Source: Flavobacteriales bacterium (GTDB lineage: Bacteria > Bacteroidota > Bacteroidia > UBA10329). From it: 64,000 nt of DNA. This document shows positions 25,569-45,400 of this stretch, in pieces. Under the pieces are notes generated by a model. It had not been told where the DNA came from, did not search any database, and saw only the letters and a program-made list of their open reading frames with translations. Both the position numbers and the translations under genes were made by a program. The stretch is taken from positions 4,472-68,471 of the forward strand of contig JAIPBM010000021.1 of NCBI GenBank assembly GCA_021739695.1, read 5' to 3'. Numbering within the stretch: the first letter of the stretch is position 1; each line of letters opens with the position of its first letter.

Positions 25569-28500
25569 ATGAGAAATTTTCTTTTCCTATTTGCCGCGCT
25601 CGTACTTGGCACGGTTCAATTTGCGCAAGCGCAGCAGCTCAAATCCTTTACTCACGACAACGAAAAGTACATCACCGAATTGCAAGAGTTCTTTGCAATG
25701 GGCGATCCAAAAGCAGCCAAAAAGCTGATTGAGGAAACCTTTCTTCCTGTTTGGAATAGCGGTCATTACAGTCCGCAGCAGAAGGAGCGGGTTTACAAGA
25801 TTTCGGATCTGATGTTGAAGGAGAAAAAAAAGGCGGTCGATTTTGAAAACTACCTTTTTGCACTCATGAGTTTTGCAAAGAGTATGAAGCCAGCTTCCGA
25901 CTTTGATGCATTTCATGACGGTTTGGAAAAAACCATCACGCAACTTTCAAGAAAGCAGTTTACCGAGTATTTGGAAGTGTGTAAAAGCCTCTTTACTGAT
26001 TACATTCTGTACGATTCTCAGGCCGTGAAATGGGTGGCCAAATTTGATGCTTACAAGATTCAATTCGATTCTTTGCCCAAGATTGTTTTTGGGAAATTGG
26101 ACCTGAAAGCATATTCCAAGCGCGATAGTTCAATCATCTACGGAACGCAAGGAGTCTATTATCCAACACTTACCAAATGGGTGGGCAAAGGCGGAAAAAT
26201 AGATTGGAGCCGTGCTGGATTCGACCCCGCAAAAACCTACGCTGATATTGGGAATTATACCGTTGATGCAACCAAATCAACCTATTCAATAGACTCAGTT
26301 ACGTTCTATCATCCCGACTATCTTGATAGACCACACATTGGTGTTCTCACCGAAAAAATTCTGGCCGATGTGGACGAAGAATCGGCTTCTTATCCTCGAT
26401 TCGATTCTTACGACAAGCGTATCCTTATCAAAGACATGTATAAGGATATCGATTACTCGGGAGGGTTTTCGCAGCACGGAATCAAGTTCATTGGTTCTGG
26501 AGATGCGGATCAAGATGCCACGCTGATATTCAAAAAGATGAATCACCTCACGAAGAAGAATGAAAATTTCATTGCTGCTCGATCTAAATCGTTTGTGATC
26601 CGTCCTGATAAAGTGCTTTCCAAAAAGGCGGAAGTGTCTTTCTATTACGAAGGCGATTCCATTTATCATCCTGGAATTCGGGTGGATTACAATGTGGAAA
26701 AACACGAAGTGGTCTTTGCAAAAGACAAGGAAGGTTCGGGCAGAAGTCCGTTTTACGATACCTACCATAAGGTTGATATGCACGTGGATGCCATTACTTG
26801 GAATATGAGTGCCGATTGGATGACGCTTCAAAATACCACTGGTGGAGCAGAAAGTAGCGCCATGTTTGAGTCTGATGATTATTACGATGAATACCGCTAC
26901 GACCGAATCAGAGGAACTGCGGATATTCATCCACTTTGGAAAATCCGGAACTATGCGAAGGAATTGGGCATGGAGGAGCTGACAGTAGAACAGGTAGCGC
27001 GTCTGTTTAAGTCAGATATCAGTGAAACAAAGGTTTTTCTCATCAATCTGTCAAACTCAGGTTTCATGACATACAACTACGAGAAAGACCTTGTAATGCT
27101 CAAGCCTCGTCTGCATCACTATGTCTTGGCCCGTTCGAAAAAGACAGATTACGACATTCTTCAATTCGAGTCTATTGTAGATGGTTTGCCAAATGCCAAA
27201 CTGAATCTATTGAACTGGGATATGGACATGAATGGAGTTGGTCGCATTTTCCTTTCCGATTCGCAGGATGTGATCGTCTTTCCATACGAGCAGGAATTGA
27301 CACTGAAAAAGAATCGGGATTTCCTTTTCAACGGAAAAGTAGTTGGTGGTAGATTGGACTTCTTTGGAAGCGATTTTTACTTCAGCTATGACGATTTCAA
27401 AATCACCATGAACCAAGTGGATTCATTGCGATTGAAGGTTCCGGATGGCACGCCTGATGACAGCGGAAGGCAACCTTTGCGAGCGGTTAAAACGGTACTT
27501 CGCGATCTGAAAGGAGAACTCTTGGTGGATAGGCCCGATAACAAATCAGGACTCAAAGATCATCCTCGGTATCCCGTGTTCAATAGTACGGACGATTCGT
27601 TCGTGTATTATGACAAGCGTTCAATTCAAGATGGTGCTTATAAGAAAGAGGAGTTTTACATGCACCTTAAGCCATTCAGTATAGACAGTTTGGAGAATTT
27701 TACCAAAGAAGGTTTGGCCTTTGATGGGAATTTTGTGTCAGCCGGTATTTTTCCGGATTTCGAGGAAACGTTAAGACTTCAACCAGACTTTTCTCTTGGT
27801 TTTGTGCGAGAAACTCCGCCAGAAGGTTTAGATACTTATGGTGGAAAAGGAAAATACAAAGCCACTATCAAGCTAAGTCATGAGGGTTTGAGAGGAGATG
27901 GAAATCTGGAATATTTGACATCCATTTCCAAGTCAGATGATTTCCTTTTCTATCCAGATTCTGTAAACGGAGTTGCTCAAGATTTTGTGATAAACAAGCA
28001 AAAGAGCCCAACGCCATATCCGCCAGTTACGGGTGTTGATAGTCGCGTGCATTGGGAGCCGAAACTAGACCACTTCTATGCCTATAAGCTTCAAAACCCC
28101 TTCGATATGTATGAGGGCGAAGTGACACATCATGGCGGCCTCGACCTTTCTCCAAAAGGTCTTGATGGTTTCGGGAATCTCGATTTTGCTGATAGCTACA
28201 TGCGGTCGAACAGATTCAATTTCAAATACAGGGATTTCCATGCGGATACTGCGGATTTCAAATTGAAAGGCGCTTCAGAAAACTCATACGCTTTCAAAAC
28301 AAGCAACGTGAGAATGGACATCAGTTTGGATGACCGACAAGGAAAGTTCAAGTCGAACACGGGAGGCGATTTTGTTGATTTTCCAGTGAATCAATACATC
28401 TGCTACATTGATGAGTTCAAGTGGAACATTGATCAGAAGAATATTGATGTAGTGTCTGATGGCGAAGGCTCACGCTACGTATCCACCAACCCGAAGCAGG

Positions 28501-29987
28501 ATTCGCTTGAGTTCCGCTCTCCGTTAGCAAAATTCAATCTTGATAATTTCATCATTTCCGCCAAAAAAGTGGACCACATTGATGTGGCCGATGCAATCAT
28601 TTATCCTGATAGTGGAAACGTGACCATCCGTGAACAGGCTGCGATGGATCCGTTGGGAAATTCGCGGATTGTGGCCAACCGAATCACCAAGTTTCATACA
28701 TTCTATGAGTCTACTGTAAATGTGCTGGGCAAATGGAAGTACAACGCTAAAGGCAAGTACGATTATGAAGATGTAACGGGTAAAAAACAATTGATTGAAT
28801 TTGCCAAGATCGGTATCGACTCGGCTGGGCAGACTTTTGGTGAGGGAATCATTGCTGAAGAAGCAGCCTTTACGCTCAGTCCAAATTTCGATTACAAGGG
28901 CAAGGCAAAATTGTTTGCCAGTCAGGAGTTTCTCACCTACGATGGTAGTACGCGAATCAAACATGATTGTCCTGGTATTACCCGCGACTGGTTAGCGTTT
29001 GATGCAGATATCGATCCGAAAAACATCTATATTCCGATACCTGCTGAGCCGAAAGATGCCAATGGAATGCCGATGTCTTCAGGTGTTGTTATCAGTAAAG
29101 ATTCTACAACGGTTTATCCAACGTTCCTTTCCAAGAAGATCAAACCGAATGATATTGATATTGTGGCAGCAGAAGGCTATCTCCATTTCGATAACGAGAG
29201 TCAAGAATACCGGATTTCTAACAAGGAAAAATTGCAAGGTGCCGTTGTTGGTGGCAATTACTTGAGTTTAAGCAACGAGTGTATTGCCAGAGGTCAAGGA
29301 AAATTGAACATGGGAATGGATTTCGGGCAAGTTGAATTGACTCCGCTCGGAACGGTTGAGCACAACATGAATAATGATTCAACCAAATTCAATCTATTCC
29401 TTGGTATCGACTTTTTCTTTAATGATGAGTCGCTGAGGATCATGGCCGAGAAGATCAGTAATCACTTCCCTCCATTGGATGCTGTGTTCTATGGAACGGA
29501 ATATGAAAAAGCCTTGATCGAGTTGGTTGGAAAAGACGAAACAACCAAGCTCATCCAAGAGCTCAATCTTTATGGAACTTTCAAAAAGCTACCGAAGGAG
29601 CTTGAAAAAACCATGTTCCTTACAGATGTGGAACTTGTTTGGAACCCAACTACTGGATCGTATCGCTATAAAGGATTCATCGGTATTTCCAGTGTTGGAA
29701 AATTCCAGGTCAATAAGATGGTTTACGGATTGGTTGAGCTCACCAAAAAGCGTAATGGCGATGAACTTTCGGTTTATTTTGAGCCGAGTGATGACAGTTG
29801 GTTTTTCTTCAACTATAAACGAGGAATGCTTGGTGCATTCTCTTCGAACGATGATTTCAACGCACAGATTCGTGATACGAAAGACGATAAGCGCACACAG
29901 AAAGGGGAGAAGGGAAAGCCAAATATTACCTACGTCCTATCAACAGCGATCCAAAGAAGAAATTTTGTGCGTTCGTTTGAAGAATGA
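25569..29987 (+). CDS. large secreted uncharacterised protein (1472 aa)
   Basis: Uninterrupted 4.4 kb ORF with a signal peptide (MRNFLFLFAALVLGTVQFAQAQ), rich in Tyr, Asp, Lys and Phe. I recognise no catalytic motif. Confidence 0.6.
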   Translation: MRNFLFLFAALVLGTVQFAQAQQLKSFTHDNEKYITELQEFFAMGDPKAAKKLIEETFLPVWNSGHYSPQQKERVYKISDLMLKEKKKAVDFENYLFALMSFAKSMKPASDFDAFHDGLEKTITQLSRKQFTEYLEVCKSLFTDYILYDSQAVKWVAKFDAYKIQFDSLPKIVFGKLDLKAYSKRDSSIIYGTQGVYYPTLTKWVGKGGKIDWSRAGFDPAKTYADIGNYTVDATKSTYSIDSVTFYHPDYLDRPHIGVLTEKILADVDEESASYPRFDSYDKRILIKDMYKDIDYSGGFSQHGIKFIGSGDADQDATLIFKKMNHLTKKNENFIAARSKSFVIRPDKVLSKKAEVSFYYEGDSIYHPGIRVDYNVEKHEVVFAKDKEGSGRSPFYDTYHKVDMHVDAITWNMSADWMTLQNTTGGAESSAMFESDDYYDEYRYDRIRGTADIHPLWKIRNYAKELGMEELTVEQVARLFKSDISETKVFLINLSNSGFMTYNYEKDLVMLKPRLHHYVLARSKKTDYDILQFESIVDGLPNAKLNLLNWDMDMNGVGRIFLSDSQDVIVFPYEQELTLKKNRDFLFNGKVVGGRLDFFGSDFYFSYDDFKITMNQVDSLRLKVPDGTPDDSGRQPLRAVKTVLRDLKGELLVDRPDNKSGLKDHPRYPVFNSTDDSFVYYDKRSIQDGAYKKEEFYMHLKPFSIDSLENFTKEGLAFDGNFVSAGIFPDFEETLRLQPDFSLGFVRETPPEGLDTYGGKGKYKATIKLSHEGLRGDGNLEYLTSISKSDDFLFYPDSVNGVAQDFVINKQKSPTPYPPVTGVDSRVHWEPKLDHFYAYKLQNPFDMYEGEVTHHGGLDLSPKGLDGFGNLDFADSYMRSNRFNFKYRDFHADTADFKLKGASENSYAFKTSNVRMDISLDDRQGKFKSNTGGDFVDFPVNQYICYIDEFKWNIDQKNIDVVSDGEGSRYVSTNPKQDSLEFRSPLAKFNLDNFIISAKKVDHIDVADAIIYPDSGNVTIREQAAMDPLGNSRIVANRITKFHTFYESTVNVLGKWKYNAKGKYDYEDVTGKKQLIEFAKIGIDSAGQTFGEGIIAEEAAFTLSPNFDYKGKAKLFASQEFLTYDGSTRIKHDCPGITRDWLAFDADIDPKNIYIPIPAEPKDANGMPMSSGVVISKDSTTVYPTFLSKKIKPNDIDIVAAEGYLHFDNESQEYRISNKEKLQGAVVGGNYLSLSNECIARGQGKLNMGMDFGQVELTPLGTVEHNMNNDSTKFNLFLGIDFFFNDESLRIMAEKISNHFPPLDAVFYGTEYEKALIELVGKDETTKLIQELNLYGTFKKLPKELEKTMFLTDVELVWNPTTGSYRYKGFIGISSVGKFQVNKMVYGLVELTKKRNGDELSVYFEPSDDSWFFFNYKRGMLGAFSSNDDFNAQIRDTKDDKRTQKGEKGKPNITYVLSTAIQRRNFVRSFEE

Positions 29988-30020: not shown

Positions 30021-30094
30021 GGCTATGTAGCTCAACTGGATAGAGCACCTCACTACGGATGAGGAGGTTTGGGGTTCGAATCCCTACATGGTCA
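30021..30094 (+). tRNA. tRNA-Arg (anticodon ACG)
   Basis: Hand-folded cloverleaf. Acceptor GGCTATG/CATGGTC with two G-U pairs. D-arm GCTC-aactggata-GAGC. Anticodon stem CCTCA/TGAGG with loop cTACGga. T-arm TGGGG-ttcgaat-CCCTA. Discriminator A. CCA is not encoded. Confidence 0.8.
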
Positions 30095-30105
30095 CAATAA
30101 GAAAA

Positions 30106-30128
30106 GGAGGCAATTGCCTCCTTTTTTT
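30106..30128 (+). terminator. rho-independent terminator after tRNA-Arg
   Basis: GGAGGC-(aatt)-GCCTCC perfect hairpin followed by TTTTTTT. Confidence 0.7.
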
Positions 30129-30182
30129 ATTGTTGACCGCAACGTGTCACTTTATTTACATTTGCAGTCAAACGCATTAACC

Positions 30183-30716
30183 TTGTTTAAAAACAGATTC
30201 AGAAGCTTACTGGTGATAACGGCCAGTTTAACCTTGGTCACTTCCTGTAGTAAGAAGTTGATGTCGGTATTGGTGGAAAATCCCAATGGCAACGTTGAAC
30301 TCATTTATGCGGGTACTGAGTCTCCAGATAATTTAGTCAAGGAAATCAGATTTTATCCTAGTGGAGATACCCTGTCGGTTACACCTATGAAAAAGGGTTC
30401 GGTTCATGGTGTCGTTGAGTTCTACTATCCCAACAATACGCTCAAAGAGCAAACTTCATTTGTTGATGGCAAGCAGAATGGAGCATTCAAAAGGTATGGA
30501 ACAGATGGCACCCTTGTTTTTGAAGGACAATTGACAAATGGTCAAAAAGACGGTGTTTGGACAACTTGGTTTGATGAGGTCCAGATGTCGGAGCAAGGCG
30601 CTTATTCCAATGGTGAGCGCCAAGGAAAGTGGACCTATTGGTTTTTGGACGGCAATATGAAGCGTGAGGAGGTCTACGAACTTGGCAAGCTCATTGAAGA
30701 GAAGAATTTCAACTAA
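30183..30716 (+). CDS. YwqK/MORN-variant repeat lipoprotein
   Basis: Lipoprotein signal peptide (LLVITASLTLVTSC) followed by G-x-W-x-x-(W/Y) MORN-like repeats (KQNGAFKRYGTDG, QKDGVWTTWFDE, ERQGKWTYWFLDGN). The track ORF starts at an ATG inside the tRNA (30069). A TTG at 30183 after the tRNA terminator is the more likely start, but it is uncertain. Confidence 0.55.
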   Translation: MFKNRFRSLLVITASLTLVTSCSKKLMSVLVENPNGNVELIYAGTESPDNLVKEIRFYPSGDTLSVTPMKKGSVHGVVEFYYPNNTLKEQTSFVDGKQNGAFKRYGTDGTLVFEGQLTNGQKDGVWTTWFDEVQMSEQGAYSNGERQGKWTYWFLDGNMKREEVYELGKLIEEKNFN

Positions 30717-31585: not shown

Positions 31586-34500
31586 GTGAAACGACTTCTA
31601 CTCTTATTCTCAACCATATTTTTTCTTGGATTCCAAAATGCTTCAGCAACACATATTGTTGGTGGTGAGCTCGTGTACAATTACCTTGGAAATAGCCAAT
31701 ATGCCGTAACACTTGTGATTTACCGCGACTGTCTAAGTGGTACTGCGGATTTTGATGATCCTGCTGCTGTCGGTATTTTCAATTCGAGTGGAACGCTACT
31801 TCAGAATCTGAATTTCAACCTTGATTCGGTTGTTTCTATACAATCATCAATCAACTCGAGCTGTGTAACAGCCCCTAGTAATGTTTGTACAGAAGCGGGT
31901 TATTACACCGAGATTGTCACTTTACCGCCAATAGCTGGAGGTTACACTATTTCGTATCAACGTTGCTGCAGAAATGCAGTTGTTCAGAATATTCAAAACC
32001 CCGGTGATGTGGGTGCTACATATGTAGCTACCATTCCAGGAACTGAGTCAAGTCCTGCAAATAGTAGCCCATTCTGGAATAATCTTCCCCCGTTGTACGT
32101 CTGTGTGAATTTGCCGTGGCAGTTCAATCATTCTGCGTTTGATGCCGATGGTGATGTGTTGGTTTACTCCTTGTGCAACCCTTACGAAGGCGCAACGGCC
32201 AATGCTCCTCAACCAGATCCGCCAGCCGCACCACCTTACACACCTATAACTTGGGCTGCGCCTTATAGTTTAACTGATATGATGGGCGGAACTGTTCCAT
32301 TAACCATTGATCCAGTAACAGGCGAGCTAAATGCCACTCCCACCAGCGTTGGTACTTATGTTATTGGTATGTGTGTGCAAGAATATCGTAACGGTGTTTT
32401 ACTAGGAGAAACCAGACGAGGAATTCAAGTTAATGTGGTGAATTGTCAAGCACCCGTTGCTTTTCCAGATGATGTCAACGAAATCTCACCGACCTCATTC
32501 ATTAATTGTACTGAATTTGTAGAGTTCAATGCCTTTAATTCTGCAGGATTCAGTGTGTGGTGGGATTTTGGAGATCCAACTACGACAAGTGACCAGTCCA
32601 CAATCCAAAATCCTACTTGGACTTACCCAGGGCCGGGGGTTTACGACCTAACACTCGTTGTCTACAATCCGATCAACCCTAACGACCCACTTTGTACTGA
32701 TACTGTGGTTCAGCAGGTTACGGTTCAAGACACGGTTATTCCTGATGCAGGACCAGATCAATCAACATGCCCTGGTATTCCTGTCCAAATTGGAACACCG
32801 GCAGTACCAGGATGGACCTATCAGTGGACGCCTGCTACAGGCTTGGATAATGCAAATATTGCTCAGCCAACTGCGAGCATTACCCAACAAATAGTTTATA
32901 CTTTGACCGCGACAGATGCGGTTGGCTGTTCGGGAAGTGATGCCGTCACCATCGGTCTTCTTTCAAACCCTGGCGCTAATGCAGGGGCCGATGTACAGAT
33001 CTGTTCCGGGGATTCGGTTCAGCTGAATGCCACTGGAGGTGTTGATTATTTGTGGTTCCCGTTCACTTTCATCGATGACAACACAATCGCGAACCCGTTC
33101 GTGTTCCCACCTACATCTACCGAATATATTGTCGGAGTGACCAGTAGTGATGGTTGCGTTGGGGTGGATACGGTTTTGGTTGAAGTATTGAGTGCTCAAC
33201 TGCAAGTTTCCAGTAATGTGGATATCTGTTTCGGAGATTCCACGCAACTTTCTGCTAGTGGGGCAGTCACTTATTTGTGGAGTCCTAATCAGGATATCAG
33301 TGATGTGAACAGTTCTTCACCATTTGTTTCTCCAACGGTAACCACTATTTACACGGTTGATGCTATTACTGGCAATGGATGTGAAGTTTCTGGGGCTGTA
33401 GAAGTAACGGTTAATGCTTTGCCGAACGTCAATGCTGGCTTAGATGTATCGATTTGCGATGGTGAATCTACGTTGCTCGGAGCAATCGGAGCTAATTCAT
33501 ACACTTGGAGTCCTTCTGCTTCTTTGGATAATCCAAATAGCCAAGGACCGCTTGCTTCGCCAGTATCAACTACAACATATGTGGTCGAAGGCACAAGTTC
33601 TTTAGGCTGTACAGACCTAGACACAGTCGTAGTGACGGTCAACGCATTGCCACTTGTCAATGCGGGAGTGGATCAGACCCTCTGTCTTGGACAGTCAGTA
33701 CAATTGACAGTCACAGGAGCAGATACCTATCAGTGGACACCATCAACTGGACTTAGTGACTCCAACATTCCGAACCCGACCGCTCAACCAACGCAGGCGA
33801 CCACCTATGTTGTGGAAGGTACAGATGTGAACGGCTGCACAGGCACCGATACGGTTCTGGTCGATGTGTTCACCGTAAGTGCCACGGCCGATACGACCAT
33901 CTGCATCGGAGATCAGGCACAACTTGGAGCATTTGGCGGCACCAGCTGGAGTTGGACACCGACCACGGGACTATCCGATCCGAGCGCACAGTTTCCAACA
34001 GCTGATCCAACAACAACTACAACCTATACGGTAATAGCGGATGACGGCACAGGCTGTCTGGCCAGCGATGATGTCACAGTAACGGTCAGTCCGCTTCCGA
34101 CCGTATTTGCAGGCTTCGACCAAGGCGTATGTGCAGGCAATCAGGCACAGTTGAACGCCACAGGCGGAGTAGGCTACGTATGGACACCGGCCGCAGGACT
34201 TAGCAACCCGAACATCTCGAACCCTGTTGTCACCTTCAGTACAGACACCATCACCTATCAAGTGACCGTCACGGATAATATCGGATGCTCCAATACCGAT
34301 GCGGTGACCGTCTGGCAAGAGCCACTACCAGAGGCATTGGCAGGTCCCGACACCACCATCTGCGTGGGCGGAAGTGTTGAACTGTTCGCCACAGGCGGAC
34401 AGACCTACATCTGGAGCCCTACCTCAGGATTGAACAACCCGACATCACAGAACCCCACGGCCACTCCGCTCACCACGACCACCTACACGGTCACGGTAGG

Positions 34501-36487
34501 TCAGCAGAGCGGAAACATCGTTTTCAACGGAGATTTCTCACAGGGCAATGTGGGCTTCGGAAGCGACTACACCTATTATAGTGGCGGACCGAATATGGGT
34601 GAAGGGCTGTATGCCGTTGAGACAGATGCGAATGCGGTTCACAACGCTTTCCAAGGCACAGGTCACACCGGCAACGCCCCACAGGACAGTTTCATGGTGG
34701 TGAACGGAGCAGGCATACCGAACCAGAATGTCTGGTGTCAGACCGTATCGGTGAGCCCTAACACGGACTATTATTTTGGAGCATGGGTAAGCACAATGGT
34801 TGCCAGCAGCCCAGCCATCCTTCAGTTCTCGATCAACGGACAGGTACTCGGCTCACCGTTCAGCGCCCCGTTCAACACGAACAACTGGGTACAGTTCTTC
34901 CAGACATGGAACTCAGGCAATGCCACCACAGCCACCATCTGCGTGGTGAACCAGAACACCAACACGGGCGGAAACGACTTCGGATTGGACGACATCACGT
35001 TCAGCACGTTCTGCACGAACACGGCCGAAGTGACCGTTACAGTGAACCCACTTCCACAGGCAGATGCAGGAGCCGATCAGGCCATCTGTATCGGAGAGAC
35101 GACCCAGTTGGAAGGATCTGGAGGAAGCACCTATGAGTGGGTTCCACCGATAGGGATCAGCGATCCGACCGACCCGAACACGGACGCATCACCGATCACC
35201 ACCACCAATTACACGCTCATCGTAAGAGACAACATCGGTTGCGAGGCCACCGATCAGATGACGCTGACGGTGAACCCATTGCCACAGGCCAATGCAGGTC
35301 CCGACCATGCGATATGCATCGGAGAGAGCGTAGTACTACAAGGCTCTGGCGGCACGGTCTATCAATGGTTCCCGACCACGTATCTGGACGATCCGACCGC
35401 ACAACTGCCGATCTCCACAGCAGAGGCGACCACGACCTACACGCTAACGGTGATAGACAATAACGCGTGTGTGAACACGGATCAGACCACAGTGACGGTA
35501 AATCCGCTACCGATAGTGGATGCAGGACAGGACAGCATGATCTGCGCCAATGCCACCATCGTGCTACAGGCAAGCGGAGCAAACACATATCTGTGGAGTC
35601 CACTTGTGGGTCTGAGCGATCCTCAAAGTGCGAGTCCATCAGCATCACCGACCAACGGAACGACCTATTACGTGACCGGAACGGATGTGAACGGTTGTTC
35701 GAATATGGATTCGGTTTCAATCATGATTTTCGGTGTTGCTGCCAATTCGGGCGACTACGTGATCTGTCTGAATGATAGTGTTCAAGCAACGGTTCTTGGC
35801 GGGTCAAGTTATGTTTGGACACCAACTTTAGGTGTAAGTGATTCAACCTCCAATGCGCCATATCTTAGCCCCGAAACGAGTACGAACTACATCATTTCGG
35901 TTACAAGTGCATTTGGATGTTTGGCTGAAACCGAAGTCAATGTTCAGGTTCTAAGCTTACCCATTGCAGGGTTCACTGCTGCGTTTGAACCAAGCTGTGA
36001 TGGGATTTTCGCAAGTTTCAACAACACATCTGAAAACACACAAACCTATTCTTGGAATTTTGGTGACGGCACGTTTTCCTCCTCAATGGAACCAACTCAC
36101 ATTTATGCAGTTGGATCTGGAAATGTGGTGACCTTGGTGGCTTACAATAATGATAGTCTGTGCGTGGATTCAATGACCATTGATTATTCCGGTCAATGGT
36201 TTGGGAATGATAGCGTGACCATTGATTATTCAAATGTCTTCACCCCAAATTTTGATGGGATAAACGATTGTTTCAAACCCGATTTTGACGGTCGGTTCAG
36301 CGAATGTTACGAACTGAAGGTTTATAATCGATGGGGCGAGCTCTTGTTTGAATCAGTTGCTGGGCAGAATCACTGTTGGGACGGAAGGACCAAAGGTGGC
36401 AATATGGTACCCGAAGGAACGTATTACTACATATCCGTCATTCATGGCATGGATCATGCGGGATACGTGACGGTCATTTATCAATGA
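31586..36487 (+). CDS. giant T9SS cargo adhesin (1633 aa) with a conserved N-terminal domain, about 16 SprB-type repeats, an internal CBM4/9-like insert and a C-terminal gliding-motility/T9SS type B sorting domain
   Basis: Signal peptide followed by an N-terminal domain (HIVGGELVYNYLG ... YRDC ... EYRNGVLLGETRRGIQVNVVNC). The body is repeated roughly 77-aa units (AGxDxxIC.G.S.QL.A.GG..Y.W.P..GLS.PN..NP.A.P..TTTY.V..TD.NGC..D.V.V.V). The C-terminus (YSNVFTPNFDGINDCF ... YNRWGELLFES ... EGTYYY) matches the Bacteroidota gliding-motility-associated C-terminal sorting domain. Confidence 0.85.
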   Translation: MKRLLLLFSTIFFLGFQNASATHIVGGELVYNYLGNSQYAVTLVIYRDCLSGTADFDDPAAVGIFNSSGTLLQNLNFNLDSVVSIQSSINSSCVTAPSNVCTEAGYYTEIVTLPPIAGGYTISYQRCCRNAVVQNIQNPGDVGATYVATIPGTESSPANSSPFWNNLPPLYVCVNLPWQFNHSAFDADGDVLVYSLCNPYEGATANAPQPDPPAAPPYTPITWAAPYSLTDMMGGTVPLTIDPVTGELNATPTSVGTYVIGMCVQEYRNGVLLGETRRGIQVNVVNCQAPVAFPDDVNEISPTSFINCTEFVEFNAFNSAGFSVWWDFGDPTTTSDQSTIQNPTWTYPGPGVYDLTLVVYNPINPNDPLCTDTVVQQVTVQDTVIPDAGPDQSTCPGIPVQIGTPAVPGWTYQWTPATGLDNANIAQPTASITQQIVYTLTATDAVGCSGSDAVTIGLLSNPGANAGADVQICSGDSVQLNATGGVDYLWFPFTFIDDNTIANPFVFPPTSTEYIVGVTSSDGCVGVDTVLVEVLSAQLQVSSNVDICFGDSTQLSASGAVTYLWSPNQDISDVNSSSPFVSPTVTTIYTVDAITGNGCEVSGAVEVTVNALPNVNAGLDVSICDGESTLLGAIGANSYTWSPSASLDNPNSQGPLASPVSTTTYVVEGTSSLGCTDLDTVVVTVNALPLVNAGVDQTLCLGQSVQLTVTGADTYQWTPSTGLSDSNIPNPTAQPTQATTYVVEGTDVNGCTGTDTVLVDVFTVSATADTTICIGDQAQLGAFGGTSWSWTPTTGLSDPSAQFPTADPTTTTTYTVIADDGTGCLASDDVTVTVSPLPTVFAGFDQGVCAGNQAQLNATGGVGYVWTPAAGLSNPNISNPVVTFSTDTITYQVTVTDNIGCSNTDAVTVWQEPLPEALAGPDTTICVGGSVELFATGGQTYIWSPTSGLNNPTSQNPTATPLTTTTYTVTVGQQSGNIVFNGDFSQGNVGFGSDYTYYSGGPNMGEGLYAVETDANAVHNAFQGTGHTGNAPQDSFMVVNGAGIPNQNVWCQTVSVSPNTDYYFGAWVSTMVASSPAILQFSINGQVLGSPFSAPFNTNNWVQFFQTWNSGNATTATICVVNQNTNTGGNDFGLDDITFSTFCTNTAEVTVTVNPLPQADAGADQAICIGETTQLEGSGGSTYEWVPPIGISDPTDPNTDASPITTTNYTLIVRDNIGCEATDQMTLTVNPLPQANAGPDHAICIGESVVLQGSGGTVYQWFPTTYLDDPTAQLPISTAEATTTYTLTVIDNNACVNTDQTTVTVNPLPIVDAGQDSMICANATIVLQASGANTYLWSPLVGLSDPQSASPSASPTNGTTYYVTGTDVNGCSNMDSVSIMIFGVAANSGDYVICLNDSVQATVLGGSSYVWTPTLGVSDSTSNAPYLSPETSTNYIISVTSAFGCLAETEVNVQVLSLPIAGFTAAFEPSCDGIFASFNNTSENTQTYSWNFGDGTFSSSMEPTHIYAVGSGNVVTLVAYNNDSLCVDSMTIDYSGQWFGNDSVTIDYSNVFTPNFDGINDCFKPDFDGRFSECYELKVYNRWGELLFESVAGQNHCWDGRTKGGNMVPEGTYYYISVIHGMDHAGYVTVIYQ
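32740..35960 (+). repeat. intragenic tandem array of SprB-type protein repeats, about 231 bp each (diverged at the DNA level)
   Basis: Recurrent translated pattern with conserved Cys, GG..Y.W.P, TTTY and TD.NGC. Confidence 0.6.
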
Positions 36488-37206
36488 GACAATTACCCGT
36501 TTTTCTTTTTCTCCTTTTCCCGTTCTCAGTATTCGCTCAAAGCTCGGACACAGCCAAGTTTGTACTTGGGAAAGTTGAATACGCCCAGCATTCGGAGTTT
36601 GTAAAAATCCCACAAGCCTACGCCAATAAGGAAGGAATGTATCTGCGGAAAGAAGCCTTGGACGCATTCATTCTGATGCGAAAGAAAGCGCAGACTGATG
36701 GCGTGAATCTGACCATCATTTCTGCTTGTAGGAACTTTAATCATCAGAAAAGTATTTGGGAAGCCAAGTGGAATGGCAGCCGTAAAGTAGGAGGGAAGGA
36801 TCTGAGCCAATCAATTCCTAATGCTGCGGAACGCGCCAAGGAAATCCTAAAATACAGTTCTATGCCAGGTACTTCGCGCCATCATTGGGGAACAGACATT
36901 GATGTCAATTCCTTGAGTTCAGCTTATTTTGAATCGGGAAAAGGGAAGAAGGAATATGAATGGCTGCGTGATAATGCGCTGGAATTTGGATTCTGTCAGG
37001 TTTATTCGGAGAAAGGAAACGAGCGGAAACACGGCTACGAGGAGGAAAAATGGCACTGGAGTTATGTGCCGTTATCTTCCCGATACTTGGCTTACTACAA
37101 ACGAAATATCAAGCAAACGGACATACAAGGGTTTGATGGGGCAGATGCGCTTCCGTTCAGCGAGATCCGAAAATATGTATTAGGTATTTCTACCGATTGC
37201 AAATAA
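36484..37206 (+). CDS. peptidase M15B-like D-alanyl-D-alanine carboxypeptidase family protein (VanY-like)
   Basis: Signal peptide (MRQLPVFLFLLFPFSVFAQS) and the zinc-ligand motifs SRHHWGTDIDV and EEEKWHWSY typical of M15B/VanY. The start ATG overlaps the adhesin stop (ATGA), which suggests translational coupling. Confidence 0.7.
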   Translation: MRQLPVFLFLLFPFSVFAQSSDTAKFVLGKVEYAQHSEFVKIPQAYANKEGMYLRKEALDAFILMRKKAQTDGVNLTIISACRNFNHQKSIWEAKWNGSRKVGGKDLSQSIPNAAERAKEILKYSSMPGTSRHHWGTDIDVNSLSSAYFESGKGKKEYEWLRDNALEFGFCQVYSEKGNERKHGYEEEKWHWSYVPLSSRYLAYYKRNIKQTDIQGFDGADALPFSEIRKYVLGISTDCK

Positions 37207-37238
37207 AAAAGGTCGTCTCATTTGAGACGGCCTTTTCT
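37205..37238. terminator. bidirectional rho-independent terminator
   Basis: 11-bp stem AGGTCGTCTCA-(tt)-TGAGACGGCCT, flanked by an A-tract on the 5' side and TTTT on the 3' side. It lies between convergent genes ending at 37206 (plus) and 37256 (minus). Confidence 0.65.
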
Positions 37239-37255
37239 ACTGCTGAATGATATTC

Positions 37256-38056
37256 TTAGTTCTTCATGAATTTTTGAACACCCATTACAGAACCTTGAGA
37301 TTGAAATTCCAAGATGTAAGCTCCGAATGCGATGTCAGAAACTGTAAGGTCCAATCGCTGATTTCTGCTAGTTGGAATCACTCGGATAGATTGTCCCATT
37401 GCATTGCGGATCACGATCATATCAACCAAATCGTTGGCAGTGCCGAGATTGATTGCCAAATGGTCTGTTGCAGGATTTGGGAAGATTGAAATACCATGCT
37501 CTGAAAGGAAATCTGAGCTGATTGAAGCTGGATTTGTAGCGATGGCGTTATTCACAGCACTCACCATTCCAGCAAGGTTTTGATTCCAAACATCGGCAGT
37601 GATTTCTCTGTCTGCAGGACGAATTACACTGATTGTTGGAAATCCATCTGGCCAATAAACACTTCCAGAAAGCGAAAGTGGAGCTGACTCATCCACAATT
37701 GGATAATTGGCATCAGTAACCCAATCGCCTTGCGTGTTGCTGCCAGTTCCATTCAGGTCTGCAGTATTCGTACTAGCATCGGCTTCGTAGAAGATGACAC
37801 GAATCTGATTGGTTCCAGTTGGCCCCATTTGCGTGTTCAGGTCATTCAGGTAATTAGCATTGTGAACACTCCAGCAGGTACCGCACCAAGTTGCAGATGC
37901 ATCTAGCACAACCACATAGCCTTGATCCAAAATCCCGTATAGATGATGTGTTTGACCGTCAATGTCGGTCACTGTGAAATCAGGAGCAGTTCCCATTTGG
38001 GCGTAGCTTCCAGATGACACAATAATTGAAGAAATTAGAAGTAATAGTTTTTTCAT
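37256..38056 (-). CDS. thioredoxin-like (TlpA/redoxin, WCGTC) protein with a T9SS type A C-terminal sorting domain
   Basis: Signal peptide followed by a thioredoxin-fold CxxC motif (DASATWCGTCW). The C-terminal 80 aa (ISIFPNPATDHLAINLG ... VIRNAMGQSI ... GAYILEF) matches the Por/T9SS secretion C-terminal domain. Confidence 0.7.
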   Translation of the reverse strand: MKKLLLLISSIIVSSGSYAQMGTAPDFTVTDIDGQTHHLYGILDQGYVVVLDASATWCGTCWSVHNANYLNDLNTQMGPTGTNQIRVIFYEADASTNTADLNGTGSNTQGDWVTDANYPIVDESAPLSLSGSVYWPDGFPTISVIRPADREITADVWNQNLAGMVSAVNNAIATNPASISSDFLSEHGISIFPNPATDHLAINLGTANDLVDMIVIRNAMGQSIRVIPTSRNQRLDLTVSDIAFGAYILEFQSQGSVMGVQKFMKN

Positions 38057-38128
38057 CGTGTTTTTTTAAGGTTGATAACTCCGTAAATCTAACGAACAGA
38101 TCAGAATAGGTTCTCGAAAGTCAAATCA

Positions 38129-38136
38129 TATTTTTG
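38129..38136 (+). promoter_or_regulatory. candidate -7 promoter element (TATTTTTG) upstream of guaA
   Basis: Matches TAnnTTTG, 52 nt upstream of the guaA start. Confidence 0.25.
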
Positions 38137-38187
38137 CCAAGTGTCGGTAGACGTACAATAAACCGACAGTACTTTACCTGATTTATC

Positions 38188-39733: not shown

Positions 39734-41407
39734 TTGGATATGCGATCTGTTTTATTCATACTTCTTGCCTTTTTGCTGAATCTATATAATGGATTTGCGC
39801 AGGATGTTGCAGTTCAATTAAGCGATAGTATCGCCAAAATTGAAGGCAATGTTTACATCATTCATGTGGTGCAACCCAAGCAAACGTTATTCTCCATTGC
39901 AAAAGCTTACGAAGTAAAACTAAGCCGCATTGCATTCGATAACCCGGGTGTTCTGGACGGGTTGAAGCTTGATCAGCCGTTAAGAATTCTTAAAAGTGCG
40001 ATGGGCGAAACGCAGCCAACCGAGTCCACCAAAGAGACGCTGGAATTGGACGGCCACTATGTGCTTTATACCGTGCCAAAGCAGCAAACGTTGTATGCAA
40101 TTTCCAAAGAGTACAACACAACGGTTAGCGCTATAATTGATGCGAATCCAGAGCTTTCGGAAGGATTGAAAGTTGGCTCCACCATTCGGATTCCAACCCC
40201 CAAGATTTTTGGAGATGGAAATAAAGAAGGAGAGAGGAAGGATGTGAAAATGGAGATGGTCGGATTGCCGGACATCGTGAAGCGTAAAGAGTTCGTTACG
40301 CAAGCGGAAACGAGTTCAGGCAAAGCTTATACCATTGCTTTGATGTTGCCTTTGTATCTGGATATGAATGATACAATCGAAGCGAAGCGAATTCAGGAAC
40401 AGCCAGAAGAGATCTACGAAAAATCAGAAATCGCTCTTCAATTCTATGAAGGATTTCTAATGGCCATGGATTCTTTGAATGCCATTGGTTATAATGTGAA
40501 GCTTAAGGTCATTGATACAGAAAACCGTGCTTGGAAAGTAAAGCGGATAGCAGAAACGGGCGGATTGAAAAATGTTGACCTTATAATTGGCCCTTTCTAT
40601 TCGAAGGTTTTTTCTGAAGCGGCTGCTTACGCCAATCAGAGCTGTGTGCCAATTGTTTCTCCCACAATTAAGGGCTCAAACATCATTCTTAATTCTCCAA
40701 ACGTATTCAAAATGATTGCTGCGGATGATGCGATGATAGGAGAAATGGGTCGCTACCTCGGTGCATCAGATTCAACCAACAATATGATTTTGCATTATGG
40801 TGCTGCCGATGAGCTTGCAATGGTTGAAAGGTTTAGAAGTGGTCTGAAAGCAAGAGGAGGGAAACCGGTTTCCTTCAGATCCTACAACATTTATACCTCT
40901 GGATCGGATTCCATCCGAAATCATCTATCGCATGCCAAGCGAAACAACATCGTGGTGTTGAGTAACAATCAGGTAAAATTGGCTAGTCTTATCAAGAAGA
41001 TTTCATCGTGGGCAGAAGACGATTACATAGTGGCTTACGCTCCGAACACGTGGCAAACCTTCAAAAATCTCGAGATCGATTATTTCGATAAGCTGAGATT
41101 GCATATGCCGGTTCCGTTTCATGTCAATTACGAAAGGCTGGACGTGGAATACTTCGTTCTGAATTTTAGAGAAAAGTTCAATGCCGAGCCAAGTTCATTT
41201 GCTTTCAGAGGCTACGATCTTGCCATGCATTTTATCCGGAATTTGGATGGGATAAAATCGCAAGGTGTGGATTACATGCAGCAGGTGCGCGAAACGGGAT
41301 TACAATCGTCATTTTCGTGGTCAAAAGTTCCAGATGGTGGATTCGAGAATTCCCATGCAATTATGGTTGACTACACTGACCTCGAACTAAAAATTGCCAC
41401 AGATTGA
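39734..41407 (+). CDS. LysM domain-containing protein fused to a periplasmic-binding-protein-like domain
   Basis: Two LysM motifs (YIIHVVQPKQTLFSIAKAYEVKLSRIAFDNP and YVLYTVPKQQTLYAISKEYNTTVSAIIDANP) followed by a type-I PBP-like alpha/beta region. Confidence 0.65.
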   Translation: MDMRSVLFILLAFLLNLYNGFAQDVAVQLSDSIAKIEGNVYIIHVVQPKQTLFSIAKAYEVKLSRIAFDNPGVLDGLKLDQPLRILKSAMGETQPTESTKETLELDGHYVLYTVPKQQTLYAISKEYNTTVSAIIDANPELSEGLKVGSTIRIPTPKIFGDGNKEGERKDVKMEMVGLPDIVKRKEFVTQAETSSGKAYTIALMLPLYLDMNDTIEAKRIQEQPEEIYEKSEIALQFYEGFLMAMDSLNAIGYNVKLKVIDTENRAWKVKRIAETGGLKNVDLIIGPFYSKVFSEAAAYANQSCVPIVSPTIKGSNIILNSPNVFKMIAADDAMIGEMGRYLGASDSTNNMILHYGAADELAMVERFRSGLKARGGKPVSFRSYNIYTSGSDSIRNHLSHAKRNNIVVLSNNQVKLASLIKKISSWAEDDYIVAYAPNTWQTFKNLEIDYFDKLRLHMPVPFHVNYERLDVEYFVLNFREKFNAEPSSFAFRGYDLAMHFIRNLDGIKSQGVDYMQQVRETGLQSSFSWSKVPDGGFENSHAIMVDYTDLELKIATD

Positions 41408-42306
41408 GTTTGAACAAGGAAGAAATTGCCAGTTGGTTCCAGGGCTTGCAACAGCACATTTGCACGGAGCTTGAGAAAGAAGATGGCAAAGCCAAGTTTG
41501 AGGAAGATATTTGGACAAGACCAGGTGGAGGAGGAGGCCGAACTCGCGTTATCCAACACGGAAATGTTTTCGAAAAAGGTGGCGTGAATTTTTCGGCAGT
41601 TCATGGCGAACTTGGTGAAAATATCGTTCGGGCTTTGGGTGTAAAATCCAACGTCTTTTTTGCAACAGGCGTTTCAATCGTCATTCACCCCATCAATCCC
41701 TTTGTTCCGATCATTCACATGAATGTTCGCTATTTCGAGTTGGGCGATGGTACCTATTGGTTTGGTGGAGGAATTGACCTTACACCTCATTACATCTTTG
41801 ACGACAACGCTCAATATTTTCACACGGCATTGAAGCAAACCTGTGACCGATTTGATTCAGCGTATCACCCAAAATTTAAAAATTGGGCTGACGATTATTT
41901 TTTCATTCCTCACCGAAAAGAAACACGTGGAGTTGGCGGCATTTTCTTCGATCGCCTGATGGAAAACGATTCGAAATCGAAAACTGATATCTGGAATTTT
42001 GTGCAAGCAGTTGGAGAAACTTTCGCGCCCACTTACCGCCACATCGTTTCTGCCAATAAGGCCAAAACGTTCACTGAATCCAACATGAAATGGCGCAATG
42101 TGCGGAGAGGTCGCTACGTGGAGTTCAATTTGGTGTACGATAAGGGAACGAAATTCGGTTTGGAGACCGATGGAAGGATCGAATCGATATTGATGAGTCT
42201 GCCTGAAAATGCATCTTGGATATATAATTTTCAAACCGAAGCAGGCAGTTTGGAGGAACGAACTCAGAGCCTTTTGGTCAAAGGGCTAGATTGGATTCAA
42301 TCTTAA
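41404..42306 (+). CDS. hemF: oxygen-dependent coproporphyrinogen III oxidase
   Basis: WTRPGGGGGRTRV, HPINPFVPIIHMNVRYFE and YVEFNLVYDKGTKFGL are classic HemF blocks. The start overlaps the preceding stop. Confidence 0.85.
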   Translation: MSLNKEEIASWFQGLQQHICTELEKEDGKAKFEEDIWTRPGGGGGRTRVIQHGNVFEKGGVNFSAVHGELGENIVRALGVKSNVFFATGVSIVIHPINPFVPIIHMNVRYFELGDGTYWFGGGIDLTPHYIFDDNAQYFHTALKQTCDRFDSAYHPKFKNWADDYFFIPHRKETRGVGGIFFDRLMENDSKSKTDIWNFVQAVGETFAPTYRHIVSANKAKTFTESNMKWRNVRRGRYVEFNLVYDKGTKFGLETDGRIESILMSLPENASWIYNFQTEAGSLEERTQSLLVKGLDWIQS

Positions 42307-42336: not shown

Positions 42337-42420
42337 GTTGATATGTTCGTGGCTTTATGAAGCAACCGAAGCGTTCATAGGTCGTTATTGAAATGGCTGT
42401 CGCCCAGCCATTCGCTTGAA

Positions 42421-45400
42421 ATGAAAAACCGTTATTTCCGTCTGCTTTTTGCAGTGATATGTTCCATAGTTTTTTCTGCCAATAAGGCTGAGGCTTCGCA
42501 CGCCTTGGGAGCAGAGATCACGTACGAATGTTTGGGAGGCGATCAGTATCGAGTGAGGTTGGTTTTTTACCGTGATTGTGGCGGAATTGCAGCACCAACG
42601 GCCCCGGCATTGACTCTTTCATCTTCATGTGGAAATCAGAGTCTGGCAATGACATTGCAACCACCAGAACCAGCTTATCCACCGTTCGATCAGTATTTGG
42701 CGCCTTACGAACTGCCTGTTTATTGTTCTGCTTCTGATTGTGGAAGTGGTAATAATCCTGGTTTGCAAGAATACGTGTATGAGGCAACGGTAACGCTTCC
42801 TCCATGTGCAGACTGGACATTTAGCTATGACCTTTGCTGTCGCAGTGCTGCTATCAATACGATAAGCGCACCTGGTAATCAGGATATTTATGTCAGTGCT
42901 TTTCTAAATAATCAAGCTGCACCATGCAACAGTTCTCCTGAGTTTGACGTGGCAGCTCGTGGTTTCATATGCTTAAACCAAGACAATACGATTTTGGCAA
43001 CCGCCACTGATCCCGATGGCGATCTTCTTGTTTACAGCGTTTACACTCCATGGCACAATCCAGGTCAGAGCGTTAATTACACAGGCGGATTTAATCCAAA
43101 TAATCCGCTTTCTAATTCCAACTACACGTTTACTGATGGTGTGATTGAAGTTCATCCAACTTCCAATGGTCAGATCACTGTAATTGGTGTGATGGTGGAA
43201 GAGTATCGGAACGGTGTGCTCATCGGACGTGTGGTTCGAGACATGCAGGTGCGCGTGATCAATAACTGTCCACAAAATCCAGGCAACGATTTCGACATTG
43301 ATCAGGATGGGATATTTGACGGGAACAACTTCGTGATTTGTGCGAACAACGAGATCCAATTGGATGTGTATCTGAACAACACCCTTCCCAACGCCAATTA
43401 CAATATGGTTTTGGAAAATCTAGCGGATTTCCCTGGCGCCACATTCAATACAGTGCCAAGTGGAACAGCTCCAGGAGGCATTGTCGGTCAGTTCTTTTGG
43501 ACTCCTGATCAAGGTTCCATCGGCTCCAACCAAACACTCGTATTCACTGCGTTCGATGATAACTGTCCCGTGGTCGGATTTTCCAATTTCACCTACGATT
43601 TTACCATCACCGGCCTCGAATTATTAGTTGATATTGATACGGTGGCCATTTCCTGTGCGGATTCGGTTCAAATGGTTGCCACCGTTTCCAATGGATCACC
43701 ACCCTATAGTTTTCTCTGGAACGATGGATATGCTGGCGCAAGTAGATGGGTTGGGGCCGGACAATATATTGTTGAAGTTACAGACAATGAAGGCTGCACA
43801 GGAAGTGATACGATAGAGGTCTATTACGTAGATGATCCTCAAGGCGCATTTTTTGACCCAACAGGTGCGTGTGTCGATTCGGCCGTTGCTTTTGTGGATC
43901 AATCTTTCAGTAATTATCCTGCCAATTTGCCACCAATTACCATTGTTGATTGGGAATGGGATTTTGGAGATGGATCAACGCTTACAGGTGTCCAAAATCC
44001 AACCCATGCATACGATACGGCAGGATTGTATCAAGTACAACTTATTGTGACGAACGATCTTGGATGTGTGGATACTGCTTGGAGTTCCGTTTGGGCCAAT
44101 CCACCTCCGAGAGTAGATTTTGAATTTGAAAATGTGTGCACCGACACACTTTTTACCTTCACTGATCTTACTACAATAGATACTGGCCAAGTGGTCTCCT
44201 GGGCATGGGATTTTGGAGATGGAACAGCTCCAGTTCAACTTCCAAGCACTACGCATCAATTTGCCAACACAGGTTATTTCGATGTGACCTTGGCTGCGGT
44301 TTCAGATAGCGGTTGTCCCGCATATCTCACACAACAAGTGTATTCATTTCCCTTGCCGATTGGCGATTTTTCACCTACGGATGTGTGCTATGGTAACGCA
44401 TCGAGTTTTCTTGATCTTACCACAGTTTCAGCAGGTTCGGTAGAAGGTTGGCTGTGGGATTTTGGAGATGGAACGATTTCCTCCACGCTTCAAAATCCGG
44501 TTCATACATACGGAGATACAGGCGTTTTCAACGTTACACTTATCTCAACTACCGATTCTGTCTGTCGCGATACCATTACCCAAAGCGTCATGGTTCACCC
44601 AAGTCCGGTAGCCGGATTTGTGAACGATACCGTGTGCGCAGAGCTGGAAATGACCTTCACTGATACAACTACCGTTCCTTCCGGAATTATTTCAAACTGG
44701 TCGTGGTATTTTGGAGATGGAGGTGTTTCTGCGGTTCCCAATCCAATTCACGTGTATTCAATTGGTGGTCAATATACCAGTTCGCTTGTGGTTCAGTCCG
44801 ACCTCGGTTGTATAGATAGCATCGCCAAAACGGTTATTGTTTATCCGAAACCACTAGCAGAATTCACAGCTTTGGCTGCTTGTGAAAATGATGAAAACAT
44901 ATTCATCGATCAGTCGAATGTGGCTGCCGGATCTCAAGTTGTTGGTTGGGATTGGGACTTTGGTGATGGTATGGGGACATCTTCAGTCCAATTTCCAACC
45001 TACGTATATTCAGGAAGTGGCGTTTATACAGTAACGCTAATGACAGAAACCGATTTCGGTTGTCGTGATACCGTTCAGCACACTACCGAAGTGTATGACC
45101 TGCCGATTTCTGATTTCACTTTCAGTGATGTCTGTTTGTACGACCCGGTCATTTTTAATAACACTTCAAGCATTCCGTCTGGTTCAATTGTAATCAATGA
45201 GTGGGATTTTGGAGATGGTGATATTTCTTCCGCTCAGCAGCCGGTCGGGCAGCCGTATCCCGCTGCGGGATTCTATGATGTATCACTGATTACGCAATCA
45301 AATCATGGTTGCCGAGATACCTTGGTTCAGACAGTTGAGTTATTTCCTGTGCCAACAGCCATGTTCACCTTCGATTCTGTGTGTTTTCCATTTGCTACCA

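Follow-up and report, generated by a model that had tools for sequence, protein, structure and literature searches.

Introduction

That a thioredoxin can be exported by the secretion system of type IX (T9SS) is known from HBP35 of Porphyromonas gingivalis, a cargo protein that reaches the cell surface, reduces insulin in a Cys-dependent manner, complements an Escherichia coli dsbA mutant and binds hemin (PMC2907840). T9SS cargo has been proposed to fold in the periplasm before transport, and C-terminal sorting domains (CTDs) of type A and type B use different shuttle and anchor proteins, with those of type B depending on PorP/SprF-type proteins and not on PorV (PMC10202324). Here, we describe a gene for a T9SS type A cargo protein with a thioredoxin-fold domain, referred to below as the redoxin, from a Flavobacteriales metagenome-assembled genome (MAG; GenBank assembly GCA_021739695.1, contig JAIPBM010000021.1, positions 4,472 to 68,471). 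This whole stretch of 64,000 nucleotides, numbered from its first letter, is called the window. The redoxin gene lies next to a gene for an M15 peptidase, among genes for large Cys-rich T9SS type B cargo proteins, the adhesins. A preliminary description had proposed that the redoxin serves the disulfide-rich adhesins from outside the cell and that cell-wall remodelling by the peptidase is co-expressed with adhesin export. We consider it probable that the redoxin and the peptidase are two functionally independent genes that came to stand beside the T9SS adhesins through lineage-specific gene order, with the redoxin transcribed as a monocistronic unit.

A thioredoxin-fold protein with a T9SS type A sorting domain

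The redoxin gene and its parts are as follows:
37256-38056, minus strand: T9SS type A cargo gene, 266 aa, with signal peptide, TlpA/ResA-like thioredoxin-fold domain and type A CTD
38000-38056, minus strand: Sec signal peptide, residues 1-19, MKKLLLLISSIIVSSGSYA followed by Q, recognized by eye from the translation
37532-37996, minus strand: thioredoxin-fold (TlpA/ResA/DsbE-like) domain, residues ~21-175
37871-37888, minus strand: active-site motif W57-C58-G59-T60-C61-W62, read directly from the sequence
37259-37486, minus strand: T9SS type A C-terminal sorting domain, residues 191-266, assigned from PF18962, TIGR04183 and structural matches to solved CTDs

The signal peptide is probably cleaved between A19 and Q20, and nearly all family members have the Gln residue that follows this site. 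The combination of a CxxC thioredoxin fold with a type A sorting domain, already named in the preliminary description, is borne out by several lines of evidence. The CTD has a beta-sandwich fold and matches Por_Secre_tail (PF18962) with 32 bits (cutoff 27) and TIGR04183 with 29.4 bits (cutoff 23), an AlphaFold model built on 37 homologues has a predicted local distance difference test (pLDDT) score of 89, and a profile of the redoxin family retrieves ResA from the PDB with E=5e-12 and CTD chains with E values of ~1e-8. Many of the redoxin orthologues have precomputed matches to PF08534/PF00578. Given a bona fide type A CTD, delivery to the surface, or to the medium, is also a reasonable prediction.

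Both active-site Cys residues are invariant in the 37 aligned homologues (alignment A1, which drops Met1, so that these residues are numbered C57 and C60 there), and the Trp residues flanking the CxxC motif as well as a His residue four positions after the second Cys are invariant or nearly so. The Pro residue of a GFPT motif (P139 in A1 numbering) is invariant too and aligns with the Pro of 'PLPT' in ResA, at the presumed cis-Pro position. A conserved Glu residue of the family was considered as the equivalent of ResA Glu80 and dropped, the hidden Markov model alignment setting ResA E80 beside a non-conserved position. The thioredoxin fold has an N-terminal extension and a central insert, and the domain further includes a family-specific loop (YEADASTNTADLNGTGSNTQGDW). 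The structural neighbours include reductants (ResA, CcmG, TlpA, Etrx2) and oxidants (SdbA, MPT53), and hence the direction of the redoxin chemistry is not readable from the fold. The protein does not belong to the DsbA type: its motif is CGTC (CGPC in the family) and not of the CPHC type, and no DsbA structure is among the top matches. The GC content of the gene (43.7%) is close to that of the window (44.3%) and thus gives no sign of recent transfer.

In the pathway that we propose, the redoxin would be exported by the Sec machinery and fold in the periplasm; its type A CTD would then be recognized and the protein passed through the T9SS translocon, and finally it would be released or attached to the cell surface. 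Judging from its sequence, it may function there as a TlpA/ResA-like thiol:disulfide oxidoreductase, using C58/C61 to act on thiols or disulfides outside the outer membrane.

The redoxin gene is separated from its neighbours

The genes and sequence elements around the redoxin are:
31586-36487, plus strand: adhesin 1, a 1633-aa T9SS type B cargo protein with Pfam Ig_7, PKD_4 and CHU_C domains and 42 Cys residues in regular pairs
36484-36487, plus strand: ATGA overlap of the M15 start (ATG, 36484-36486) and the adhesin 1 stop (TGA, 36485-36487)
36484-37206, plus strand: M15B (VanY/LdcB-like) zinc peptidase, 240 aa, VanY domain at residues 53-196
37207-37236: bidirectional intrinsic terminator where the M15 and redoxin genes converge, a GC-rich hairpin of 13 bp set between an A-run and a T-run
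38057-38187: divergent intergenic region between redoxin and guaA
38188-39720, plus strand: guaA, from Pfam
39734-41407, plus strand: gene for a LysM/periplasmic-binding protein, from Pfam
41404-42306, plus strand: hemF, from Pfam
42388-46668, plus strand: adhesin 2, with ten PKD domains, CHU_C and 35 Cys residues
46686-50072, plus strand: adhesin 3, with an L-type lectin domain, PKD, CHU_C and 24 Cys residues

Since the redoxin gene is convergent with the M15 gene across the terminator and divergent from guaA, it forms a separate transcription unit. The terminator hairpin has a folding energy (dG) of -21 kcal/mol with z = -5.4 relative to shuffled sequences, and the terminator scan gave a match on the minus strand. 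A Bacteroidota-type TAnnTTTG sequence is located at 38129-38136 (plus strand), 5' of guaA, and another one 5' of adhesin 2. No exact TAnnTTTG was found 5' of the redoxin gene, the motif is not enriched in the window, and matches in a sigma-70 promoter scan are no more frequent than in shuffled sequences.

The adhesins are rich in paired Cys residues, as had been noted (adhesin 1 was credited with more than 30, and the counts are 42, 35 and 24 for adhesins 1-3). Their spacing alternates between ~25 and ~51-60 residues, with values of ~25 and ~51 in adhesin 1, corresponding to one pair per Ig-like or PKD repeat. Adhesin 1 matches TIGR04131 with 48 bits (cutoff 35). The preliminary description had spoken of SprB-repeat cargo, which Pfam does not bear out: the proteins carry PKD/Ig_7 repeats and CHU_C, and a lone SprB match, in adhesin 2, is under threshold. 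It had also placed the redoxin between adhesins, and adhesin genes do flank it on both sides, but only adhesin 1 is close, and adhesin 1 adjoins the M15 gene and not the redoxin gene; adhesin 2 starts 4.3 kb from the redoxin gene, past guaA, the LysM/periplasmic-binding gene and hemF.

Gene order around the redoxin in relatives

Comparison with the loci of relatives (numbered L001 onwards) indicates that the neighbourhood is not conserved, contrary to the co-localization expected earlier; this is the outcome that the preliminary description had named as refuting its proposal. Besides the window, the full adhesin-M15-redoxin arrangement is found only in the closest relatives L001, L080 and L090. 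Seven other relatives have the order adhesin(s)-M15-guaA-LysM-hemF-adhesin, with guaA directly after the M15 gene and no redoxin at the junction (L086, L087, L088, L091, L093, L094 and L096). L002 and L081 have kept redoxin-guaA-LysM-hemF but lack the adhesins, and on its other flank the redoxin has mreB, purH and gldN/M/L/K; since the gene coordinates of the two loci are almost the same, they may represent one organism. Redoxin orthologues with 45-49% identity are located among unrelated housekeeping genes, and an open reading frame (ORF) with a type B CTD occurs within 10 kb of the redoxin in 12 of 85 loci.

In L081 (10946-20798), and in the same order in L002, the redoxin gene is situated ~4-10 kb from gldN, gldM, gldL and gldK and a PorP/SprF gene. 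This proximity to T9SS core genes is absent from the window and from the other annotated contexts.

The M15 peptidase and its overlap with type B cargo genes

The M15 protein has a signal peptide (residues 1-18, MRQLPVFLFLLFPFSVFA followed by Q), matches Pfam VanY (PF02557) with 118 bits (cutoff 25) and is 100% identical to an NCBI protein of a Flavobacteriales MAG. Its zinc-binding and catalytic motifs, S131-x-H133...G136...D140 and E188-x-x-H191, are invariant in 28 homologues, including the His-Asp-His zinc ligands H133, D140 and H191 and the catalytic residue E188. The scores are far under the NCBIfam equivalog cutoffs for LdcB (38 vs 275), vanY_BG (40 vs 400) and vanXY (31 vs 250), and the family is large, with 6133 homologues at E<=1e-10; the protein is a generic Bacteroidota M15 family peptidase and not a resistance determinant. 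Carboxypeptidases of the VanY/LdcB type shorten stem peptides without opening the sacculus. By its sequence features, the M15 protein would act in the periplasm as a VanY/LdcB-like zinc carboxypeptidase, trimming the stem peptides of peptidoglycan.

The translational coupling to adhesin 1 reported in the preliminary description is real as far as the 4-nt ATGA overlap is concerned. The same overlap with a type B cargo gene can be read directly in L001, L080, L087 and L088 as well as in the window, and about seven more clade loci, with an M15 identity of ~58% or higher, show it when the start of M15 is estimated. Either an adhesin 1-type or a DUF7948-type cargo gene stands upstream. In L086 and L092, the two genes do not overlap but are ~70-200 nt apart. 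In this lineage, the M15 gene is therefore likely to be co-transcribed with the upstream type B cargo gene and would close the operon as its final cistron. Elsewhere in the Bacteroidota it stands in unrelated contexts: a type B CTD gene was found upstream of the M15 gene in none of 64 more distant loci with upstream sequence, and in one of the distant loci (L089) a methyltransferase gene is present upstream and dapB and a signal peptidase gene downstream. The overlap is thus a feature of this lineage only, and a functional tie of the M15 peptidase to adhesin export is not indicated.

The redoxin family and its architectures

A word-seeded search gave 91 redoxin clusters at 90% identity, for which the sources give no more specific name than 'T9SS type A sorting domain-containing protein' or 'thiol-disulfide isomerase'. 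More than 434 loci were found in GTDB species representatives, carried by Flavobacteriales, Crocinitomicaceae, Saprospiraceae, Lewinellaceae and Chitinophagales, and the family comprises 1367 clusters (50% identity) at E<=1e-30. At least one of the carriers is in culture, namely Flavobacterium dankookense DSM 25687 (L044). The CxxC motif is conserved, as the preliminary description required for its proposal: in addition to the 37 aligned homologues, all 113 redoxin-domain ORFs of related loci have it. Of these, 78 read CGPC, and CGTC is confined to the window's clade. WCGPC, the family consensus, is the classical reducing thioredoxin motif. A type A CTD ends 95 of the 113 ORFs; no CTD was detected in the other 18, most of which are small thioredoxin-like ORFs with weak scores.

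The redoxin domain is always N-terminal (residues ~1-160) and occurs in three length classes. The window gene represents the shortest, with ~270 aa and without a stalk. Proteins of the commonest class (~470-560 aa) contain a middle region of ~250 aa and are often encoded in tandem pairs; the middle region of the ~490-aa relatives has no Pfam match at E<=1 and may resemble Ig-like spacer domains. Proteins of the third class (900-1550 aa) have SprB and HYR repeats, containing 19-43 Cys residues, between the head and the type A CTD. Such fusions occur in about nine of the 85 loci (L034, L039, L055, L063, L068, L072, L074, L076 and L078). Since the domain always forms the N-terminal head in front of a variable stalk and a type A CTD, we regard it as most likely that the redoxin domain is the predicted business end of a surface-displayed protein, and not a chaperone for neighbouring genes. 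A head on a stalk is also the favoured reading of the fusions, as the head occurs equally without a stalk or with a middle region that lacks regular Cys-pair repeats.

Several further variants were seen. In the N-terminal 200 residues of the SprB-fused forms of L034, L072 and L076, the family-specific loop has an extra Cys pair and reads ACLYGPTGCVGGTQGDW instead of ADLNGTGSNTQGDW. Tandem pairs of the ~490-aa relatives are present in L022, L023, L025, L026, L033, L040, L042, L046 and L062. In ~13 loci (L027, L038, L044, L045, L051, L054 and L075 among them), a thioredoxin-like ORF of only 143-200 aa, with a CxxC motif but no sorting domain, lies within ~2 kb and could encode a periplasmic redox partner. 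Two relatives without a CTD, P0073 (WNPFCW) and P0076 (WNGPGW), have lost one or both active-site Cys residues and kept the other family motifs; they are 407-460 aa long and have a Cys-rich C-terminal extension, dockerin-like by eye, in place of the type A CTD.

Other features of the window

The rest of the window is ordinary chromosome, with genes for a cbb3 oxidase, folP, tpiA, prmA, ftsK, lolA and others. An Rfam scan of 30-43 kb found one tRNA and nothing else. This tRNA-Arg(ACG) (30021-30095, plus strand) lies between a 1472-aa ORF, which ends at 29987, and MORN-repeat genes, and it overlaps the mechanical TTG start of the ORF at 30069-30716, whose real start is hence probably further downstream. 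The 1472-aa ORF (25569-29987, plus strand) contains only 4 Cys residues; neither Pfam nor NCBIfam gave a match to it, and none of the fetched loci has a homologue. A MauE/DoxX-like membrane protein of 429 aa (21539-22828, plus strand) was considered as a disulfide factor and set aside; its C-terminal region is weakly thioredoxin-like and lacks a CxxC motif.

The C-terminal tail of adhesin 1 (36300-36487), compared between the window and L001, L080, L086 and L087, matches the tail of the second, DUF7948-type cargo protein of the relatives and not that of the adhesin 1 orthologues. This points to an event between neighbouring paralogous cargo genes, either a deletion or a recombination, that left the ATGA overlap with the M15 gene intact.

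Alternative explanations

The proposal that the exported redoxin forms or isomerizes disulfides in Cys-rich T9SS adhesins, its neighbours included, during or after secretion appears unlikely to us, although it is somewhat more probable than the other alternatives. In about nine of the 85 loci the redoxin is fused to SprB/HYR type A cargo with 19-43 paired Cys residues, HBP35 complemented an E. coli dsbA mutant (PMC2907840), and the extracytoplasmic oxidases SdbA and MPT53 are among the structural neighbours. In addition, CGTC takes the place of the reductase-type CGPC in the window's clade, and the redoxin is found beside the adhesin-M15 pair in four loci of this clade (the window, L001, L080 and L090). 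However, the family consensus WCGPC is a reducing motif, and the neighbourhood is broken up in the seven relatives without redoxin at the junction, in L002/L081 and in the distant orthologues, without clear enrichment of type B cargo near the redoxin. The redoxin is therefore an optional neighbour of the adhesins, transcribed convergently as a separate unit and equipped with a type A CTD, whereas the adhesin CTDs are of type B and the two types rely on different shuttle and anchor proteins (PMC10202324); all of this speaks against a dedicated helper of the neighbouring adhesins. Cargo is proposed to reach its folded state in the periplasm, ahead of transport (PMC10202324), and the adhesin disulfides would also be expected to form there. 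The redoxin could, on another account, be mainly a surface binding module for haem, a metal or another ligand, in which the CxxC motif contributes to binding or stability and not to catalytic turnover. HBP35 binds hemin and supports growth under haem limitation, P0073 and P0076 keep the other family motifs after losing active-site Cys residues, a His residue after the CxxC motif is invariant, and a conserved loop rich in Asp, Asn, Thr and Gly (DLNGTGSNTQGD) resembles, in sequence, a cation-binding loop. But the CxxC motif is kept in all CTD-bearing members examined, similarity to HBP35 is not detectable beyond the fold class, and no library identified a ligand-binding motif, so that we judge this account less probable still.

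A secreted thiol peroxidase or antioxidant of the peroxiredoxin kind seems very improbable. There are weak AhpC-TSA matches in Pfam, and peroxiredoxins and glutathione peroxidases appear among the lower-ranked structural matches, but AhpC-TSA scores 19.5 bits against a cutoff of 26, the WCxxC motif is positioned at the N-terminal end of helix 1, like that of thioredoxins and TlpA, and every one of the best matches by structure or profile is a thiol:disulfide oxidoreductase. For the M15 peptidase, the alternative is a true link to type B adhesin export, for instance through local remodelling of peptidoglycan to accommodate very large cargo or its machinery. The overlap with a type B cargo gene does persist across the clade although the type of the upstream gene differs. 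Yet none of the 64 distant M15 loci has an upstream type B CTD gene, the family is very widespread (6133 homologues), carboxypeptidases do not open the sacculus, and L086 and L092 have a gap and no overlap, and we accordingly hold such a link to be about as doubtful as the binding module.

Several observations weigh against our preferred reading of two independent genes with an exported redox-active head. The fusions of the redoxin to Cys-rich SprB-repeat proteins can be read as support for a role in adhesin maturation. We know of no electron donor outside the outer membrane, which makes a catalytic redox cycle there hard to picture, and the loss of Cys residues in P0073 and P0076 means that the fold may also serve a non-redox role. 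No gld/por T9SS core genes are present in the 64-kb window, which does contain the three type B cargo genes. Pfam Redoxin gives 25.3 bits for the window protein, marginally under the gathering score of 26.6; the thioredoxin-fold assignment is secure despite this marginal score. Outside the window's clade, type B CTD genes number 0.81 per 100 kb near the redoxin vs 0.52 near an unrelated gene, the latter value coming from other Bacteroidota contigs of a different collection and different taxa from the redoxin set, and within 4 kb of the redoxin there is a mild excess of type B cargo, based on small counts. Taken together, type B cargo is not clearly enriched near the redoxin family.

Beyond the window, we put forward tentatively, and as a rather improbable extension, that the redoxin head is the signature of a large family of T9SS type A cargo proteins in aquatic Flavobacteriales, Saprospiraceae and Chitinophagales that carry thiol-disulfide chemistry beyond the outer membrane. 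In one version, the head would be a catalyst dedicated to forming or proof-reading the disulfides of Cys pairs in giant repeat proteins of the surface, for which the SprB fusions would be the Rosetta-stone evidence; in the other, it would sit at the tip of its stalk as a thiol-based module for capture or attack. If this is true, it would raise the questions of how the disulfides of giant Cys-rich T9SS proteins are made or maintained and where the electrons go. As matters stand, an exported thioredoxin-fold protein and a peptidoglycan carboxypeptidase have been correctly annotated, and the practical value lies in the family-level description, with a signature, three architectures and a cultured carrier, which opens the question to experiment.

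Comparison with known systems

The M15 peptidase shares with VanY and LdcB (MEROPS M15B) the SxHxxGxxxD and ExxH motifs, a signal peptide and the PF02557 domain. An exported thioredoxin is likewise not new to the T9SS, HBP35 being the precedent. Like the window redoxin, HBP35 has a signal peptide, an N-terminal thioredoxin-type CxxC domain and a type A CTD. However, HBP35 is a hemin-binding protein of 344 aa from an anaerobic host-associated bacterium, whereas the redoxin is TlpA/ResA-like and comes from an aquatic Flavobacteriales MAG, and profile and structure comparisons detected no homology between the two beyond the shared domain classes. A 55-kDa 'thiol-disulfide isomerase' of Cytophaga hutchinsonii, CHU_0134, from extracellular fractions of a porV mutant (PMC8564354), is listed without a CTD and was not used as evidence.

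The TlpA, ResA and CcmG (DsbE) proteins are membrane-anchored or periplasmic and kept reduced by DsbD/CcdA, whereas the redoxin has a T9SS sorting domain and would act beyond the outer membrane, where we know of no supply of reductant. Identity between the two groups is ~15-21%, and the redoxin has in addition a family-specific conserved loop and His residue. Etrx1/2, SdbA and MPT53 differ from it in that they are lipoproteins or Sec-secreted proteins of monoderm or mycobacterial envelopes and are not translocated across an outer membrane, with Etrx receiving electrons from CcdA. Nevertheless, in these proteins of Gram-positive bacteria and mycobacteria, as is predicted for the redoxin, a TlpA-like fold acts on secreted or surface proteins outside the cytoplasmic membrane, and all of them are among the structural matches (4hqz, 5um7 and 1lu4).

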